Shown one piece after another: positions 301 to 41,102 of a stretch of 47,808 nt of DNA. Source of the DNA: a virus. Its lineage: Duplodnaviria; Caudoviricetes. The notes below the pieces were generated by a model. The model worked only from the letters and a program-made list of their open reading frames with translations. It was not told the DNA's origin and searched no databases. Every line of letters begins with the position of its first letter. Within the stretch, counting starts at the first letter, position 1. The position numbers were made by a program, and so were the translations under genes. Location of the stretch: IMG/VR virus record IMGVR_UViG_3300017913_002479, positions 1 through 47,808 of that record; one strand, written 5' to 3'.

Positions 301-619
301 CACACACCTTGGAATGGAAGGTGATTACAACGAAGTGCATCCCCATGTGAGATTTGTAGAAGACAGTGTTATTGCTGGAGCATACTACAACAGCATGGAG
401 CGTATCAGTGTATATGCAGGCTCTAGAGTGGAAGCAGGTGCAGCAGGTTTAGAGTTTGCGTTGGTTACTGGCTACGATGAAGTAGCACCTATTTCTCCGT
501 ATATCAGAGGCACATATGATTTGGGCAATGTGAGAGCATTTGCATCACCTACAGCCGAAGTTTGGAATGGCGAAACCAATATAGGCGTAGTTTTCGGCAT
601 AGAATATCAGATTAAATAA
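272..619 (+). CDS. Small outer-membrane beta-barrel, PagP-like
   Basis: Alternating beta-strand pattern; motifs S-T-H, YNE-x-HP, GAYYNS, LVTGY; C-terminal GIEYQIK; SD GAGGAG. Confidence 0.5.
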   Translation: MDLIWALAISTHLGMEGDYNEVHPHVRFVEDSVIAGAYYNSMERISVYAGSRVEAGAAGLEFALVTGYDEVAPISPYIRGTYDLGNVRAFASPTAEVWNGETNIGVVFGIEYQIK

Positions 620-644
620 AATATAAAATCTCGGAGGGCGTAAA

Positions 645-2613: not shown

Positions 2614-2648
2614 AACTAAATATTATTTGAGAAGAGAGGGCATATAAT

Positions 2649-3204: not shown

Positions 3205-5253
3205 ATGTTCAAAAAGATTCTCCTGTCACCACTGTGGAGCGTAGTGGTTTTAGGCGCACTAGCTTACGTGATGTGGCTGTCGCCAAACTTCCTCCAGACT
3301 ATCCAGTTACGCTACTTCGACCAACTGATAGTGAATCAGGAGACAGTAGAGAATAATATCTACACAGTAAACATCGACGAAGCAGCCATTGATGAATACG
3401 GACAATGGCCATTTCCTAGAGGTGACTATGCTGACATAATTCAAGATTTGTACAACAGAGGTGCAGGCTTGGTTGTGTGGAATGTGCTTATGAGTGAGCC
3501 AGACCGCAGTGGCGAAGACGAACAACTAGCATTGACAATGCAACAATTACCCGTTATTGTAACAATGCTGGGTGCAGAGGAGAATAAAAATGAAGCAATC
3601 AATCCTGGTGCTACTATTGTCAATAGTGACTATATTGACACTATGCCTAGTGTGGCAGGCATCATCGCTAACGTTCCTAACATAGAATACAGCGCAGTTG
3701 GCTCAGGTATAACAAATAGTTGGGCAGAAATAGATGGTGTCACTAGACGCATACCACTGGTTGTTGAATCAGGTGGTACACTATATCCAAATGTTACAAT
3801 GGAAGTGTTGCGTGTACTAGCAGGTGATCCTTCGTTCCAAATCAAACTATCACCAGCAGGTGTAGATAAACTTCGTATACCACAGTTTGGTATTATACAA
3901 ACAAGCACAAGTGGCGAAGTATGGATAGACTGGAGTCAAGGATATCGTTCACACAGTGTAACTGATTTACCAGATGATTTTGGTGGTGGTATAGTGTTTG
4001 TAGGACCTACAGCAGCAGGCGTAACACAGCCATTAGGAACAGCAGCAGGATCTGTGTTCCCACATGAAATACAAGCAGTAATGCTTGGAACTGTATTCAA
4101 CGAATCAAACATAAGCAGACATCCTGACGCAGAACAATGGGCCGAACTGGCAGCATTCGTTGCAGCAGGTGTGTTGTTGATTGTGCTTGCTAGATGGACC
4201 TATGTAGGTATAGCAGTATTTGTTTTATCAGTAGGCGGCTTTGTTGGCGGTAGCATATATGTATTCAATACACACAATATTCTAGTAGATGGCGCTACAA
4301 TTAGTGCCTTCTTATTACTTGTTGGTCTAAAACGCTATGTACTCAAGTTCTTAGATGAATTTTTACAAAAACAAGAAATCAAAAGACAGTTTGCAGGATA
4401 TGCATCACCGACTGTTGTTAGATTGTTACAGGAAAATCCAGACCTAATCAAAAAAGGCACAAAACGAGAAGTAAGCATAGTGTTTTCAGACCTACGTGGA
4501 TTTACACCACTGGGCGAAAGTTTTGGTGATGATGTACAAGGATTGACACGTATTATGAATGGCTACATGGATGCCATTACAGAACCTGTGCTGGATGCAG
4601 ATGGAATGATTATCAAATACATTGGCGATGCTAGTATGCACATACACAATGCACCAATTGACGATGAACGTCATGCGCACACAGCAGTACAAACCGGATT
4701 AGATATGCTCAGAGCAGTGGAGAAATTCAATGAACAAGTCATCATCCCAGAAGGAAGACCGCCAGTCGGAATGGGCGCTGGTATCAACACAGGCCTTGGA
4801 TATCTTGGCGAAATGGGCAGCACAAAAAGACACTCATATGACGTTTTGGGAGACGCTGTTTCCACCGCAGCCAGAGTCGAATCAAAATGCAAAGAATACG
4901 GATGTCTCCTGCTCATCGGAGAAGCAACTTATGCTGCAACCAAAGACGACTTCTTCTACCTCAAAGTAGATGACTTACAAGTAAAAGGTAAAAGTGTAGG
5001 ACTTGCAATATACACAGTGTTAGATGATGTAGGTCCAGCTTGGACAGGCGCACAACGTAAACATGCACAAATGCACGAAGATTATCGTGCACAACGTTTT
5101 GATGATGCTATAGAAAAATGTCGTATGCTGCATGATCATTTTGATCACAAGATGGAAAAGTATTACGACATGTGGATAGAACGTTGTGAATATATGAAAA
5201 CACAGGATCTACCCAAAGACTGGAACGGTGTGTTTATTGCTTCTTCGAAGTAG
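3205..5253 (+). CDS. CHASE2-domain class III adenylate cyclase
   Basis: N-terminal TM; CHASE2 motifs (GQWPFPR, DGVTRRIP); 3 TM helices; cyclase motifs FSDLRGFT, KYIGDA, GINTG, YDVLGDAVSTAARVES, VKGK. Confidence 0.92.
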   Translation: MFKKILLSPLWSVVVLGALAYVMWLSPNFLQTIQLRYFDQLIVNQETVENNIYTVNIDEAAIDEYGQWPFPRGDYADIIQDLYNRGAGLVVWNVLMSEPDRSGEDEQLALTMQQLPVIVTMLGAEENKNEAINPGATIVNSDYIDTMPSVAGIIANVPNIEYSAVGSGITNSWAEIDGVTRRIPLVVESGGTLYPNVTMEVLRVLAGDPSFQIKLSPAGVDKLRIPQFGIIQTSTSGEVWIDWSQGYRSHSVTDLPDDFGGGIVFVGPTAAGVTQPLGTAAGSVFPHEIQAVMLGTVFNESNISRHPDAEQWAELAAFVAAGVLLIVLARWTYVGIAVFVLSVGGFVGGSIYVFNTHNILVDGATISAFLLLVGLKRYVLKFLDEFLQKQEIKRQFAGYASPTVVRLLQENPDLIKKGTKREVSIVFSDLRGFTPLGESFGDDVQGLTRIMNGYMDAITEPVLDADGMIIKYIGDASMHIHNAPIDDERHAHTAVQTGLDMLRAVEKFNEQVIIPEGRPPVGMGAGINTGLGYLGEMGSTKRHSYDVLGDAVSTAARVESKCKEYGCLLLIGEATYAATKDDFFYLKVDDLQVKGKSVGLAIYTVLDDVGPAWTGAQRKHAQMHEDYRAQRFDDAIEKCRMLHDHFDHKMEKYYDMWIERCEYMKTQDLPKDWNGVFIASSK

Positions 5254-6241: not shown

Positions 6242-6285
6242 AGACTTACCCTTTCTACTCCACTAATATTTAGTTTATCTGACGA

Positions 6286-6771: not shown

Positions 6772-6795
6772 TAGTTTGCCCTCTCGTCTCACAGG

Positions 6796-6807
6796 TATTT
6801 ATAAATA
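6796..6807. promoter_or_regulatory. Bidirectional T4-type late promoter
   Basis: Palindrome TATTTATAAATA gives TATAAATA on both strands between the divergent SNase and CHAP genes. Confidence 0.7.
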
Positions 6808-6812
6808 TCTGC

Positions 6813-7331
6813 ATGAGAATATTGGCAATGTGCAGTGCAGTACTATTAGGTGCCTGTGGGACTACTAGTACAACAGACAGTGTTGTAACAGCACAACCTT
6901 ATTTGGGTTTACAAGAAAGACAAAATAGAAGTGAACTAAAAGAGTTTACAGGCGTTGATCCTGTGCGCATCGAATGGTGTGCGGCTTTTGTAAATGCTGT
7001 ACTTGAAGTAGACAGCATACCGGGATCAGAAAGTGTCAGCAACAATCCGTTGATGGCACGATCGTTTTTACACTGGGGCACACGTGTTGATAGACACGAT
7101 GTACGGCGTGGAGATGTAGTGGTATTTCCTAGAGGTAATCAAGGCTGGCAAGGTCACGTTGGTTTCTATGTAGAAACACAAACACACAATGGAAAAGATT
7201 ACTGGGTGATATTGGGTGGCAATCAGGACAATCAAGTAAGATACGATCTTTACAATCCTGCTAGAGCCATTGGTGTTAGAAGATACAAAACGCTTTTGGC
7301 GAACACGGAAGGACTCGAACCCTCGACCTAG
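6813..7331 (+). CDS. TIGR02594-type CHAP/NlpC-P60 peptidoglycan amidase, lipoprotein
   Basis: WCAAFVN (catalytic Cys), ARSFLHWG, GDVVVF, QGHVGFY (His), LGGNQ; lipobox LLGAC. Confidence 0.85.
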   Translation: MRILAMCSAVLLGACGTTSTTDSVVTAQPYLGLQERQNRSELKEFTGVDPVRIEWCAAFVNAVLEVDSIPGSESVSNNPLMARSFLHWGTRVDRHDVRRGDVVVFPRGNQGWQGHVGFYVETQTHNGKDYWVILGGNQDNQVRYDLYNPARAIGVRRYKTLLANTEGLEPST

Positions 7332-7373
7332 TGATTAGAAGTCACTTGCTCTATCCAGCTGAGCTACGTGTCC
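7297..7373 (-). tRNA. tRNA-Arg(TCT)
   Basis: Cloverleaf GGACACG...CGTGTTC-GCCA; anticodon arm AGTGA-CT-TCT-AA-TCACT; encoded CCA. Confidence 0.95.
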
Positions 7374-7386
7374 AGCAAAAGCGTTT

Positions 7387-7462
7387 TGGTGCGCCCGGTA
7401 GGATTCGAACCTACGACCGACCCGTTATGAGCGGGGAGCTCTAACCGCTGAGCTACAGGCGC
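7387..7462 (-). tRNA. tRNA with CAT anticodon, probably Ile2 (lysidine), possibly Met
   Basis: GCGCCTG...CGGGCGC-ACCA; loop CTCATAA; paired 1:72 excludes initiator; the body resembles Ile2 tRNAs. Confidence 0.85.
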
Positions 7463-7698
7463 TATTTTTTATAAATGTATTCTGTGCGGTATGTACCTTC
7501 TGGTTTTTGCATACTGCTCAACATTTCTTGAAACATTTCTGGCGACATCTGTATTACTTGAAAACTCTGCTGCTTTTCTACCCACTGACGCAAATATATC
7601 ATATCATCATACATGAATATACTGACATCTTCACACTTTGCTTCATCTTCGAGCAAAGTAATCAGTATTTCATCTAGGTCCATTTCTACTGTAAACAT
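7462..7698 (-). CDS. Hypothetical protein inside the tRNA cluster
   Basis: 78-aa ORF; its TAG stop overlaps the first base of the tRNA; TAAGTA lies 5 nt upstream of the ATG. Confidence 0.7.
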   Translation of the reverse strand: MFTVEMDLDEILITLLEDEAKCEDVSIFMYDDMIYLRQWVEKQQSFQVIQMSPEMFQEMLSSMQKPEGTYRTEYIYKK

Positions 7699-7712
7699 AG
7701 TAATACTTATGT

Positions 7713-7901
7713 TTACAAATTTTGGCCTTCTCTAAATATACAAATTGCTTGATGGTCTGGTGGGAAAAAGCCTGCTTCGCCGCCTACTTTATGACTCAGT
7801 GCTTCACGTGCATCAAAGCAATCAAACATTGAGTTGTATGTTTCTAATCTCGAGAACTCTAGTTGGTCCCCAATGAAGACCAAATATACTAGTGTCCACA
7901 T
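7713..7901 (-). CDS. Small hypothetical protein (C...C motif)
   Basis: Start moved to MWTLVY (AAGGAAAG upstream) to avoid overlap with tRNA-Trp. Confidence 0.65.
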   Translation of the reverse strand: MWTLVYLVFIGDQLEFSRLETYNSMFDCFDAREALSHKVGGEAGFFPPDHQAICIFREGQNL

Positions 7902-7916
7902 CGAACTTTCCTTGCT

Positions 7917-7992
7917 TGGCACAGGCGCTAGGACTCGAACCCAGGACCCTCGGTTTTGGAGACCGATGCTCTACCAACTGAGCTACACCTGC
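7917..7992 (-). tRNA. tRNA-Trp(CCA)
   Basis: Anticodon arm TCGGT-CT-CCA-AA-ACCGA; TTCGA T-loop; 3' GCCA. Confidence 0.95.
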
Positions 7993-7995
7993 CTA

Positions 7996-8080
7996 TGGTG
8001 CGAGTAGAGGGACTTGAACCCCCACGCCTTGCGGCACTAGAACCTAAATCTAGCGTGTCTACCAATTTCACCATACTCGC
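7996..8080 (-). tRNA. tRNA-Leu(TAG)
   Basis: Anticodon arm CTAGA-TT-TAG-GT-TCTAG; long variable arm; 3' ACCA. Confidence 0.95.
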
Positions 8081-8084
8081 TTTA

Positions 8085-8160
<76 letters not shown>

Positions 8161-8173
8161 GTGATAATATTTA

Positions 8174-8263
8174 TGGCGGACAGTGTGGGATTCGAACCCA
8201 CGAGACGCTTTCACGTCTACTCCCTTAGCAGGGGAGCGCCTTCGACCACTCGGCCAACTGTCC
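8174..8263 (-). tRNA. tRNA-Ser(GCT)
   Basis: Anticodon arm CTCCC-CT-GCT-AA-GGGAG; long variable arm; 3' GCCA. Confidence 0.95.
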
Positions 8264-27224: not shown

Positions 27225-27856
27225 ACAACCCTCTCGTATTTTTCTAATATGTGTGCATAGTCATTTATGTTCGGTGACCATACACCAATAAATGTTGATT
27301 CTGGTTCGTCGCTATCACTGTATTTTGCCATGTCGTATACCCAAAAGCCATGTTGTGCAGCCACTTGATAATTTGCAATATGCTGTTCACGACTCACAGC
27401 AAACCACTCATCGATTCCATTGCCGTCCAGTGTTTCGCTAAAGTAAAAACCGTTTACTGCGGGCTGCCAACGAAGAAATGTCTCCATACTGGTTTCGATA
27501 GTAGCATCAACATCACCATCGTCAATTATAATATCCCATGGACCAGGAAATCTCTCCACTGTGTCTGCACTGTTGCTGTTCCAGCCCCAATGCAAATCCA
27601 AGTCGTATGCAAATGTTTGTTCACACTTGCGACGAAACTTTTCTCTGCTGTGTTCTTTTACCACAGTGAGTTCAGGATAATCCAATACGTCAAATCCAGT
27701 TACAGTCATACCCATGTCTTGCCATTGCCAATGACTGGTGCCTCCAGTGCATCCCCATTCCAACAAGGTTTGAGGGTTGCTGGCATGAATAAGATCCATG
27801 TACAACGGCAAAAATCCTCTGCGCTGTCTACGCCATTTTACACGATGTTGAGTCAT
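27221..27856 (-). CDS. Class I SAM-dependent methyltransferase-like protein
   Basis: LLEWGCTGGTS, VTGFD, WDIIIDDG motifs. Confidence 0.65.
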   Translation of the reverse strand: MTQHRVKWRRQRRGFLPLYMDLIHASNPQTLLEWGCTGGTSHWQWQDMGMTVTGFDVLDYPELTVVKEHSREKFRRKCEQTFAYDLDLHWGWNSNSADTVERFPGPWDIIIDDGDVDATIETSMETFLRWQPAVNGFYFSETLDGNGIDEWFAVSREQHIANYQVAAQHGFWVYDMAKYSDSDEPESTFIGVWSPNINDYAHILEKYERVV

Positions 27857-36130: not shown

Positions 36131-36164
36131 AAAAAAAGGGAGTAGCTGTTACACTACTCCCTTT
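36131..36164 (-). terminator. Intrinsic terminator after the ATPase gene
   Basis: AAAGGGAGTAG-N8-CTACTCCCTTT stem running into a U7 tract. Confidence 0.9.
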
Positions 36165-36208
36165 ACGGTCCATTGGAGTGAGAGAGGGCGTAAGTTGGAC
36201 CGTTATCT
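36131..36208 (-). ncRNA. Candidate 3'-UTR-derived anti-Shine-Dalgarno small RNA
   Basis: 8-bp stem ACGGUCCA/UGGACCGU enclosing loop ACUUACGCCCUCUCUCACUCCAA, then the terminator; the loop is complementary to several gene leaders. Confidence 0.55.
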
Positions 36209-37030
36209 CTAGCGTACCCGTTTCATACACGTTACTTCTACATAACGTTTCCAGTTCTCTGGATTGTGTTTCATCAGGTCCGCAATCTTTGTTACCATGC
36301 GCAAGCTCACTTCACGCAAGCCTTCTTTGTTGGTGTCCATGTAACGCATCAATGCGCTCACTTGGCGCTTGTCGAATCCGTATGAATCAAGCATACCATC
36401 ATCTACCAACTGCTTACAGCGTAAGAACTTTTCACGCATGCTGTCAATTGTCAAATCCATATAGTGACAACGTGACATAATTGCATCCAAGTGGTCTTTG
36501 ATCTTACCACGTGCTGCTTCAAACTTTAGGTTAGTGATAAAAATAACACTACCTTTGAATTCAAAACGATCTGGAATACCTTCGCGGCGTAGTAGCGCAC
36601 TGTCTGTGTTCCAGTTCAAATAACGTTTGGCACTCGAATCAAGTGCTGCCTTCAGCAAGTTCAAGCTGGTCTCATCGTGTAACACTGTGTCACAGTCGTC
36701 CATAACCAACACAGAACCTTTGTCTGAGTTTTCGTACAATACCTTGTACAAACCAATTGCACTTGACGCACCTTTTACAACAGTGTAGCGGTCGCCTTTG
36801 TTGGCCAGTTTATCTAGCATACGGTTTTCGTTGAGCACTTGCTCGACACCGTATGATTTGCCAACACCCGGAGGGCCAGTAACAACCATACCACGCACAA
36901 CACCGTCAACACTGGCTTGTGTCATGTCGTTCAGAATATCAAAACGCTCACGCATACGTTTGATAACTTGTGCGTCTGTTTCTTGCTTTACAACTGTTTC
37001 TTTTACTGCTTTTTTAGTAGTACGTGCCAT
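36209..37030 (-). CDS. P-loop/AAA-type ATPase
   Basis: Walker A GPPGVGKS, Walker B VLVMDDCD, FITN, SR motifs. Confidence 0.85.
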   Translation of the reverse strand: MARTTKKAVKETVVKQETDAQVIKRMRERFDILNDMTQASVDGVVRGMVVTGPPGVGKSYGVEQVLNENRMLDKLANKGDRYTVVKGASSAIGLYKVLYENSDKGSVLVMDDCDTVLHDETSLNLLKAALDSSAKRYLNWNTDSALLRREGIPDRFEFKGSVIFITNLKFEAARGKIKDHLDAIMSRCHYMDLTIDSMREKFLRCKQLVDDGMLDSYGFDKRQVSALMRYMDTNKEGLREVSLRMVTKIADLMKHNPENWKRYVEVTCMKRVR

Positions 37031-37065: not shown

Positions 37066-37093
37066 ATAATAACACAAGTACAACCTGTGTCAA
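37066..37093 (-). promoter_or_regulatory. Sigma70-type early promoter for the ATPase gene
   Basis: TTGACA-N16-TATTAT with a TGn extension. Confidence 0.55.
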
Positions 37094-37785: not shown

Positions 37786-37819
37786 TGTGTCTGCCCTCTT
37801 CTATCAACGCTATACATAT

Positions 37820-38947: not shown

Positions 38948-40016
38948 CCTCTGCGTCTTCGGCGATATTTACCTCGGACATGTCTTTTTGATTCCACTCT
39001 TGGATAATCACATCCAAGCAACCGTCGTCGTTGCGTTCCCAACCCTTGCGGAATTTGGTTACAACTTCTCCAGTAACATTACTGGTGAATTCTAATCGGT
39101 TACCTGTTTTCTTTAGTATGCCTTTTGCTTCGCAGAGATCTACAAGTCCGCTGTATGGATTCATACCAGTTTCGTATGGAATCTTTACTTGTACACTTTC
39201 AAAAGGTTTTGCATAGCGTGTTTTCATTACTTTACATGCTGCACGAATACCTTTTACTTCGCTGATCTTGTTACCGTCTTCATCTTCTTTTAGTTTCAGT
39301 TTACGCATTGCAACAACAATACTTGACGCATAGATAAAGCCTTGACCGCCTGAAATTTTATCATCTGGATCAAACATATCCTGTGATGCATATGTATGGT
39401 TAGTTGCTACTAGTCCAACATTGTAATCACCAAACATGTTCACACAGTTACGAACCAGTGCTGTTAGTGCTTTAGGCTTACGACCCAGGTCGCCTTTCAT
39501 ATCACCTTTGGTAAACTGATCAACATCAGTGGGTGTTAGCATCATGCCAAGACTGTCAATTACAAACAACACTTTAGGACGATCTTCTTCGTCTTTGTCT
39601 GCATAACTGGCTTTGTAGTCTTTCATAAACTCACTGATTACCTTTGCAACATCGTCAATCATTGCAACATTCAATTTCATCAGTGCCTCGTCACTGGTAT
39701 CAACATCCAGTGCTTTTAGCCATGCTTCGTCTAGTGCATTTTCACTGTCAATCAGTACAACAAAAATACCTTGCTTTTGTGCTTCACGCACAACATTGCC
39801 ACTACAAATAAAACTTTTACCTGCACCTGATTCTCCTGCAAACACACTAACTTTACCCAGTGGAATGCCTTTGTGAAAATCACCGCTGATCAAATAGTTC
39901 AGAGTATAGTTACCTGTTGAAATCCATGTGTCTGGATCACGAAAACCGCTGCTGAGCCCAGGTACGCTCTTTGTAATACTTTTGCGGAATTTACTTACAT
40001 CAAATGGTTTTGCCAT
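38913..40016 (-). CDS. uvsX: RecA-like recombinase UvsX
   Basis: ISTG, GESGAGKS, IDSENA, VIDSLG, TNHTY, SGG, KTR motifs; start at MAKPF with AGGAG SD. Confidence 0.95.
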   Translation of the reverse strand: MAKPFDVSKFRKSITKSVPGLSSGFRDPDTWISTGNYTLNYLISGDFHKGIPLGKVSVFAGESGAGKSFICSGNVVREAQKQGIFVVLIDSENALDEAWLKALDVDTSDEALMKLNVAMIDDVAKVISEFMKDYKASYADKDEEDRPKVLFVIDSLGMMLTPTDVDQFTKGDMKGDLGRKPKALTALVRNCVNMFGDYNVGLVATNHTYASQDMFDPDDKISGGQGFIYASSIVVAMRKLKLKEDEDGNKISEVKGIRAACKVMKTRYAKPFESVQVKIPYETGMNPYSGLVDLCEAKGILKKTGNRLEFTSNVTGEVVTKFRKGWERNDDGCLDVIIQEWNQKDMSEVNIAEDAEDVIDEIDGTGE

Positions 40017-40033
40017 GTGCATCTCCTCAAGTC

Positions 40034-40060
40034 AAAAGGGGGCAAACTCATGCTGCCCCC
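40034..40060 (-). terminator. Intrinsic terminator after the SSB gene
   Basis: GGGGGCA-N9-TGCCCCC followed by TTTT on the minus strand. Confidence 0.8.
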
Positions 40061-40070
40061 CTGTGTGCGT

Positions 40071-41102
40071 TTAGCCTTCTTTGCGAGCACGAATTGCTGC
40101 TAGAATATCCTGTGCACTTGCTTTAGGTTCTTCACTTGCTGCTGGAGCAGGTGCTGCTGGTGCTGCTGGAGCAGGAGCAGGATCTTGCCAACCTGTGTCA
40201 TTTACAGTTTCGGCTACAGGAGCCGCAGCTGGAGCAGCCGCAGGCTGCGGTGCAGGACTAGGAGCTACACTCGGTGATGCTGCTGATGCACTGCCAGCTG
40301 GTGCACTTACACCCGGAGGACGATAAAACTGTCCAAACTCTTCTGGATCGTACAGTTGCCCGTCAACACTTGCTTCAAACATGCGACGAATTGCATCAAG
40401 TCCTTCTGCCGAAGGTTTAGCAGGCATGAAATCGTTCAAGTTGAACAGTCCATGCGTATCAATCGCAGCACGTTCATTCTCGTCCAAGCTGCGCTCACGG
40501 CGTGCCCAGTTACTTGTGCTATAGTCAGCGTATTGACCTTTTGTTGTTTTGTGAATTTTGAAATCAGTTCCTTCTTCCATATCAGTAGGAAGTGCAGGAA
40601 AGTCCGGATCCATCAATGCTTGCTTGATGATGTTGAAAATTTGTGGACCCATGATAAAGCGACGAATCGGATTATCAGGTGTTGTGTCTTCTTGTAGTTC
40701 GCTGTTTACTACAAAACCTTGGAAAATATAGCTGCGCTTTTTCCAGTACTTACGACCCATATCCTCTAGTGAAGGATCTTTGAACCAAGGACGTACTTCA
40801 GCCAGTACAGGACATGAACCAGTTGGTTCCCACATTTCCATGCACGGAACGTTTACTGTGACACGACGACTGTCTGCTTGTCCTTTGATACCAGGAAAGT
40901 CCAGACGAATCATTTGACGCTCTTTCCAAAAGAAATCGTTCGTCGTATCGCCGTCGTTTAGGAATCGTACTGTTGCTGATTTGTTTTCTTCTAGGTTCCA
41001 AAACGGAAAGATTCCGTTGTCACCACCACCTGAGCTGCTGCTCGAACTGCTGTTATTTTCCTGTGCCAGTAGTTTTGCACGAATTTCTGCCAATGAAGCC
41101 AT
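40071..41102 (-). CDS. Single-stranded DNA-binding protein (T4 gp32-like)
   Basis: ATVRFL, C...CPV, DF-I-K...YADYS-S-W motifs; Pro/Ala tail; start MASLAE with AGGAG SD. Confidence 0.88.
   Translation of the reverse strand: MASLAEIRAKLLAQENNSSSSSSSGGGDNGIFPFWNLEENKSATVRFLNDGDTTNDFFWKERQMIRLDFPGIKGQADSRRVTVNVPCMEMWEPTGSCPVLAEVRPWFKDPSLEDMGRKYWKKRSYIFQGFVVNSELQEDTTPDNPIRRFIMGPQIFNIIKQALMDPDFPALPTDMEEGTDFKIHKTTKGQYADYSTSNWARRERSLDENERAAIDTHGLFNLNDFMPAKPSAEGLDAIRRMFEASVDGQLYDPEEFGQFYRPPGVSAPAGSASAASPSVAPSPAPQPAAAPAAAPVAETVNDTGWQDPAPAPAAPAAPAPAASEEPKASAQDILAAIRARKEG

Follow-up and report, generated by a model that had tools for sequence, protein, structure and literature searches.

The window analysed here, i.e. 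the whole stretch of DNA (47,808 nucleotides), is a virus record of 47.8 kb that carries T4-like replication, recombination and packaging genes together with six tRNAs. For relatives of 58.8 kb and 133 kb, CheckV estimated 16% and 37% of the genome, respectively, which implies genomes near 350 kb; the window and its relatives constitute a group of uncultured giant marine phages (jumbo phages). The minus strand of the window encodes an AAA+ ATPase of the phrog_1250 family (Table 1), homologs of which were found in 1,307 phage records, T4-like nrdC.10 and PA5oct among them. In the accessible part of the source, nrdC.10 is named as an AAA-motif ORF of unknown role (PMC1524935). The predicted fold of the ATPase (pLDDT 86) is nearest to MoxR-type NorQ/CbbQ proteins (TM about 0.5), and a functional assignment from the fold search was rejected, the matches being to generic AAA+ proteins only. 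The near-consensus sigma-70-type promoter just upstream of the gene suggests early expression, and this promoter-like site and a terminator-like hairpin bracket the ATPase gene. The window also contains an envelope island, which encodes a protein with CHASE2 and adenylate/guanylate cyclase domains (3205-5253), and tRNA genes for Arg, Met, Trp, Leu, Thr and Ser lie beside this island (7297-8263).

Between the ATPase stop codon and the terminator-like hairpin lies the element under study, a stem that presents an open loop. The earlier note had described two arms, a loop and a strong terminator after the ATPase stop and had listed six leaders matching the loop; all of these features are present, and all six matches were recovered where it had placed them (five exact, one gapped 18-of-22). 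Folding of the region returned the loop hairpin and a 12-bp terminator with a U7 tract (z -2.82; 0/200 shuffles). An Rfam scan of the window yielded 6 tRNAs only and no match to the element, and the scan of 17 related loci gave one sub-threshold Bacilli-1 match about 2 kb from the element and nothing else.

Table 1. Coordinates of the element, the ATPase gene, candidate target leaders and small-phage complements
Feature	Position	Strand	Basis or remark
Sigma-70-type promoter, TTGACA-16-TATTAT, 11/12	37066..37093	-	consensus match only; in front of the ATPase
ATPase ribosome-binding site; 10-nt complement to the 3' half of the loop	37036..37045	-	exact match
AAA+ ATPase, phrog_1250, T4 nrdC.10 homolog	36209..37030	-	profile/homology matches and predicted fold
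5' arm of loop-presenting stem	36196..36203	-	folding and sequence
Open C/U-rich loop, 23 nt, two anti-RBS seeds	36173..36195	-	folding and sequence
3' arm of stem	36165..36172	-	folding and sequence
Intrinsic-terminator-like hairpin, 12 bp, with U7 tract	36131..36164	-	folding and sequence
TAAATA (613-618) and 10-nt loop complement (634-643), before 636-aa gene	613..643	+	candidate trans target
TAAATA (2617-2622) and 9-nt loop complement (2633-2641), before 132-aa gene	2617..2641	+	candidate trans target
TAAATA (6267-6272) and gapped 18-of-22 complement (6244-6262), before phrog_18771 membrane gene	6244..6272	-	candidate trans target
TATAAATA (6796-6803) and 8-nt complement (6778-6785), before SNase gene	6778..6803	-	candidate trans target
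7-nt complement, DnaB-like helicase leader	27229..27235	-	weak, unconserved; absent from the earlier note
7-nt complement, leader of upstream phrog_2319 ('OB-fold') gene	37793..37799	-	weak; unconserved across orthologs
27-nt complement of clade-B loop, small phages	L323:10284-10380 (G019); L325:17580-17670 (G020); L158:355-440		

A conserved hairpin and its match to the ATPase leader

Relatives were gathered by ATPase protein search and by loop-pattern search, the 'B' pattern being the loop of clade B, the sister clade to that of the window. This pattern gave 58 distinct matches, 51 of which lie less than 400 nt after the ATPase; the other seven comprise the same hairpin on a cut contig (1), complements in small phages (3) and chance-like matches (3). 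A putative host copy of the sister loop, a single GTDB match, was rejected as a phage-like contig with the same ATPase layout. In an ATPase tree of 55 tips, the window clade and clade B form one branch (support 0.955), and the element was found in 18/18 tips of this branch, 6 of which had been fetched by loop pattern.

Among 54 distinct variants, 49 form their own stem of at least 8 bp (median 11 bp), using 27 different 5' arms, and when arms were exchanged between lineages, a stem of at least 8 bp resulted in only 4.8% of 2290 pairs. The loop core is unpaired in these 54 variants (median 0.85) and identical in 36/49 clade-B variants, and conservation extends to the loop's middle and its 5' half, for which the ATPase leader offers no partner. 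The hairpin is thus a real conserved structure: as the earlier note had proposed to look for, it recurs downstream of ATPase orthologs, with a stem that varies freely and a loop that is open and nearly fixed. Most clade-B elements (e.g. L088, L099 and L009) also have a TAAGTA motif a few bases past the U tract, which is absent in the window. Since stem pairs are mostly Watson-Crick (546/578) and the opposite strand could also form the stem in 40/54 variants, the functional molecule might be the opposite strand or the DNA itself, acting as a purine-rich decoy for a leader-binding protein or as a DNA hairpin. We regard this as highly improbable: the 32 G-U pairs favour the ATPase-sense strand (mean stem 10.7 versus 9.2), and both promoter and U tract point to the same strand.

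Pairing between the loop and the window's own ATPase leader was predicted at -17.8 kcal/mol, compared to -11.1 ± 1.9 kcal/mol for dinucleotide-shuffled loops, none of which did as well (0/200), so that this match withstood the comparison that the earlier note had set for it. When the leader of each ATPase was compared with the 130-nt tail of the same gene, a perfect complement of at least 8 nt was found in 9/42 lineages at 80% identity, these lineages being partly dependent, with one common word in the A+B branch. Other clusterings gave 24/71 lineages at 90% and 5/27 at 70% identity, and 8/40 lineages matched when those fetched by pattern were left out. As controls, such matches occurred in 1.1% of distant cross pairs, in 1/552 control genes from the same loci and, at 80% identity, in 0/10,000 permutations. 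The matches fall into five different leader words, each mirrored by its own tail (GAGTGAGA, TGTGGGAG, GGAGCGAA, GGAGCCAAC and GGGGATGACTAA), and the loop/leader covariation that the earlier note had predicted is thereby borne out for the ribosome-binding site of the ATPase itself. The placement of the anti-leader word differs between lineages: some present it in a long loop, others in the loop of the terminator, and elsewhere it is a bare stretch that follows the stop codon. The word occurs twice in one sub-clade, which has a second hairpin, and in L119/L125. No match of at least 7 nt was found in 31/42 lineages, T4, CC31 and PA5oct among them, and in L128 the loop is kept without matching the called leader. 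Following the PA5oct homolog (L055:3296-3330), the 5' arm of a hairpin repeats part of the gene's leader and the 3' arm equals an 8-nt leader complement, which could be chance. Taken together, these sequence comparisons provide strong evidence for predicted self-targeting of the ATPase leader.

The same data bear on whether the element amounts to anything at all: the region could be just an ordinary terminator with a C/U-rich spacer whose matches to purine-rich leaders are due to chance. C/U-rich shuffles also bind purine-rich leaders well, and we nevertheless find this explanation scarcely tenable; for the structure and the own-leader match it is already contradicted by the covarying stem, the fixed loop and own-leader matching in five words.

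RNA contigs of a relative (about 97%) from one seawater sample run from the ATPase into the loop and end inside it; they show no separate short piece of the kind (~75 nt) that the earlier note had envisaged, and contigs as such cannot show RNA ends. One contig (X4) contains the leader, the gene and 31 nt past the stop codon, contigs not being single transcripts; X1-X4 all come from one metatranscriptome sample, and X5 only touches a conserved part. No sigma-70-like site was found on the minus strand inside the ATPase gene, and the loop could act from the full ATPase mRNA. In a fold of the whole predicted mRNA, the leader-loop pairing probability was 0.985, under a nested model without ribosomes that cannot hold the stem and the leader pairing at once. 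Elsewhere in the window, positions 39908-40174 showed high summed contig depth in RNA libraries, which coincides with conserved, low-complexity coding sequence and loose ends and is probably cross-mapping.

Candidate trans targets in the envelope island

Outside the element, four of the five matches of at least 8 nt in the window lie within 25 nt of a start codon, and leaders defined in this way make up 1.9% of both strands; of the seven-base matches, only 2/25 are in leaders. The best five other leaders of the window reached -19.7 kcal/mol, compared to -14.6 ± 1.3 kcal/mol for dinucleotide-shuffled loops (1/200), and perfect 8-mers were present in 3/63 leaders with 0.45 expected (6/500 shuffles). 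For the relatives, genes were called on 17 further contigs (33-133 kb) with a usable loop, these records representing 9-37% of their genomes, so that the counts cover a minority of the leaders. Against shuffles, genome-wide leader energy reached 10/200 or better in 2/13 other records, one of the 13 (G007) having been scored with a mis-picked loop, and perfect 8- or 9-mers in leaders reached 25/500 in 0/17 other records.

Out of sample, the 13 ortholog leaders of four island genes gave -184.3 versus -157.6 ± 8.3 kcal/mol (1/300; z about -3.2), with a mean z of -0.2 and an extreme of -2.9 for 43 other gene families in the same test. Only 3/13 island orthologs stand out singly, and two island families switch words with their clade's loop. 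Of the earlier note's inference that the RNA silences or times the envelope island, the pairing held in these ortholog leaders, and the genome-wide counts outside the window mostly did no better than shuffles. All four island targets of the window are preceded by a TAAATA late-promoter-like motif. In 1377 leaders of large phages this motif peaks at 25-34 nt before the start codon, and it resembles ATAAATA, the predicted late promoter in CBB/GAP32 according to the accessible part of the source (PMC5259590). An enrichment of late promoters among top binders, seen in comparison to the loops of other clades (21.8% versus 8.6%), was discarded as mostly base composition; late-promoter leaders among top binders numbered 30 versus 24.4 ± 2.7, with a maximum of 31 in 80 shuffles, in a test that excludes the near-copies G012, G013, G015 and G018.

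Two further candidates were rejected as general targets, namely the DnaB-like helicase (orthologs, 16/300) and the 'OB-fold' gene, which the earlier note had included among the loop's targets and for which orthologs scored 84/300 and an 8-nt match was present in one sub-clade. The names that had been given to the targets fared unevenly: SNase was confirmed by Pfam, and 'autotransporter', 'secreted protein' and 'OB-fold' had no Pfam match, the 'OB-fold' gene having only a match to a PHROG of unknown function. In two records of relatives, G016 and G017, the best loop partners were leaders of a small membrane protein family, with -28 kcal/mol for the G016:C1 gene at 4155 (minus), where both seeds are used, and -22 kcal/mol for the G017:C1 gene at 39922 (plus). 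Overall, these predictions lend moderate support to trans pairing with envelope-island genes, and a small trans regulon among late envelope genes appears likely.

An icaR-like fold-back that acts only in cis, the loop pairing with the leader of its own mRNA alone and all other matches being by-products of purine-rich ribosome-binding sites, would be consistent with the own-leader match as the strongest and most repeated signal, with the predicted cis pairing of 0.985 and with genome-wide trans tests that are mostly flat. It would leave unaccounted for the conservation of the 5' half and middle of the loop, which lack a partner in the ATPase leader, the out-of-sample scores of the island orthologs and a full-length loop complement in another phage family, and we therefore consider it unlikely.

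Small phages carrying the complement of the sister-clade loop

Three contigs carry the B-pattern match on the coding strand of an unrelated small phage. The complement comprises 26 loop bases plus one extra base, extends into the 3' arm and covers the ribosome-binding site of a 16-residue basic, lysine-rich ORF shortly before the terminase. With the loop alone, its predicted pairing amounts to about -48 to -53 kcal/mol, and it is the only near-full-length target found for the loop. One of the small phages, G019, is complete (28,380 bp, terminal repeats) and encodes its own terminase, portal, scaffold, capsid and tail genes, so that we found no borrowing of a helper's capsid or tail. No polymerase, primase, helicase or integrase was recognised among the 22 G019 ORFs scanned, a set that excludes the tape measure and some small ORFs, and reliance on host replication is common among small phages. 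The G019/G020 family is satellite-like and may depend on a helper. In both G019 and G020, the two plus-strand operons each have TAAATA 23-32 nt ahead of the first gene, a placement like that in the large phages.

Among close relatives of these phages (terminase at least 76% identical), we distinguished seven upstream regions: three contain the full complement, two an exact 18-nt half, one a split version (L327) and one nothing significant (L333). A match of L333 to the L091 sub-clade was withdrawn, 11-nt matches occurring in unrelated controls too, and in 11 distant small-phage relatives the complement reached at most 11 nt. The 18-nt block is exact in 5/7 distinct versions while its flanks change and genes are gained and lost around it, which suggests that the small phage gains from the pairing. 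A scan for this block returned 10 matches, 7 in the small-phage family and 3 near-identical, unrelated ones. Dataset numbers in public contig names that are common to small phages and sister-clade jumbo phages were found for 3/16 close versus 1/16 distant relatives. The small-phage sequence, a near-perfect mirror image of the sister loop, may act as a decoy for it. For the window's own loop, a decoy was found neither among 9 loop matches, nor in 13 matches (9 elements, 4 unrelated coding stretches), nor in 25 metagenome matches (8 elements, 17 unrelated).

Three observations on the small phages stand apart from the complement. G020, an 18-kb fragment, has its own phrog_1250 nrdC.10-like ATPase in an early-type operon (L325:13881-14726), about 27% identical to that of the window; it was sought in 5 related records with no match. 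Early-type genes on the minus strand (L323:7645-9614 and L325:13305-17104) use a private leader word of the GGAGAC or GGAGGC type, in 5 and 7 leaders, respectively, which resembles the leader of the OB-fold-type gene in L009/L080. A gene-free stretch of about 110 nt with a terminator-like hairpin at its end (L325:17225-17355 and L323:9700-9800, minus) separates the early and late operons and has a sigma-70-like promoter in G020; read by eye, it is a possible small RNA.

The small-phage site raises two further explanations. The loop could be a weapon against a small parasitic phage, silencing the basic-peptide/terminase stretch of the late operon, with self-regulation being secondary. That the sole near-full-length target lies over a small-phage ribosome-binding site would agree with this, as would the split L327 version and the lack of any in L333, and the conserved loop middle would be accounted for. 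An exact 18-nt block in 5/7 versions amid changing flanks is unlike escape, no such partner was found for the window's loop, and self-matching arose with other words in other lineages, which together make a weapon quite improbable. Alternatively, the RNA could act as a private anti-Shine-Dalgarno, guiding and stimulating the translation of phage messages that bear its tag, with the small phages copying this tag. Early as well as late genes, and a second phage too, do carry tags at their ribosome-binding sites, and IsrK, a phage RNA that activates a short ORF coupled to the next gene, offers a precedent in the available part of the source (PMC12197685). We give this proposal very little credence, as the pairing covers the Shine-Dalgarno core itself and reaches a 27-bp duplex in small phages, the two seeds pair in different registers relative to the start codon, and a conserved second domain is lacking while stems vary freely.

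Proposed mechanism and relation to known systems

On balance, we think it probable that the element is an antisense loop that blocks ribosome-binding sites, restricts expression of its own ATPase and likely postpones that of a few late envelope genes in trans. On the completed transcript, the loop would fold back on its own leader or meet the leader of another copy, which would result in negative feedback or in a short burst of translation per transcript. Early build-up of this RNA, either intact or processed to a 3' piece, would create a threshold that delays translation from the short late-promoter leaders of the membrane pair, the SNase and the secreted and outer-membrane-type proteins. A bolder version, which we hold tentatively and judge possible rather than probable, is that the 3'-end RNA serves as a clock: it would switch the early ATPase off and keep late envelope and lysis genes in check, and the 28-kb phage would depend on a helper and use its mirror sequence as a sponge or sensor that resets this clock. 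If so, this would be RNA counter-regulation between two phages, in the direction opposite to SviR.

The blocking antisense loop that we favour would mean that the dosage of a conserved nrdC.10-family gene of unknown function is tightly controlled, and it points to an RNA threshold in the switch from early to late expression; its natural compensatory variants in five sequence words make it directly testable with reporters. Should the complement in the small phages turn out to be a decoy or sensor, it would represent a sponge aimed at another phage's RNA, and such complementarity could serve to match uncultured satellites to helpers. To our knowledge, few regulatory RNAs of lytic-type phages have defined targets. 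The element described here is real and conserved, a phage regulatory RNA element that apparently has not been described before and whose mechanism is of a known kind. What is new is a small-phage family whose late operon contains 18-27 nt complementary to the sister-clade loop. A literature search that reached few subscription papers found no description of the element, and the loop had no match in 6 supplementary files of PMC10690425, among whose unnamed candidates the element may be.

The comparison with known systems draws on the accessible parts of the sources cited. In the icaR mRNA of Staphylococcus aureus, initiation is blocked when a motif in the 3' UTR pairs with the Shine-Dalgarno region of that mRNA (PMC3868564); here, too, the 3' UTR contains, at the level of sequence, a motif complementary to the gene's own Shine-Dalgarno region. 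In contrast to icaR, the motif here is 8-12 nt long and gene-specific, belongs to a lytic-type jumbo phage, mostly sits in a long loop on a covarying stem and is accompanied by a second seed and candidate trans targets. As in 3'-UTR-derived sRNAs, the predicted terminator is shared with an mRNA. In phages P1 and P7, loops of the c4 antisense RNA pair around the ribosome-binding site of the phage's own mRNA (PMC12197685); common to both cases are phage RNA loops complementary to the ribosome-binding site of an own mRNA and differences between relatives that would set specificity, whereas the element here has no Rfam match, presents one loop of 23-33 nt at the 3' end of a gene and is tied to an ATPase instead of immunity or antirepressor control.

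With regard to shape, the closest parallel is offered by the Cuckoo/CcsR RNAs of Alphaproteobacteria, in which 2-4 hairpins each carry CCUCCUCCC (PMC4615179) and which share with the element variable stems and conserved, C/U-rich, anti-Shine-Dalgarno-like loops. The element differs from these RNAs in that a single long loop is the rule (one sub-clade has two hairpins), CCUCCUCCC is absent and the loop follows private leader words. With regard to the small phages, AgvB mimics targets and soaks up an sRNA, AgvB and AsxR being prophage anti-sRNAs that act on host sRNAs (PMC12197685), and SviR of the PLE satellite mediates RNA-RNA cross-talk between satellite and helper phage (10.1101/2022.04.08.487710). 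Compared to AgvB/AsxR and SviR, the direction would be reversed here, with the large phage providing the regulator and the late message of the small phage the complement. Collectively, the element would work like icaR and c4 and is shaped like cuckoo RNAs, and by the tests run it is a member of none of these families.
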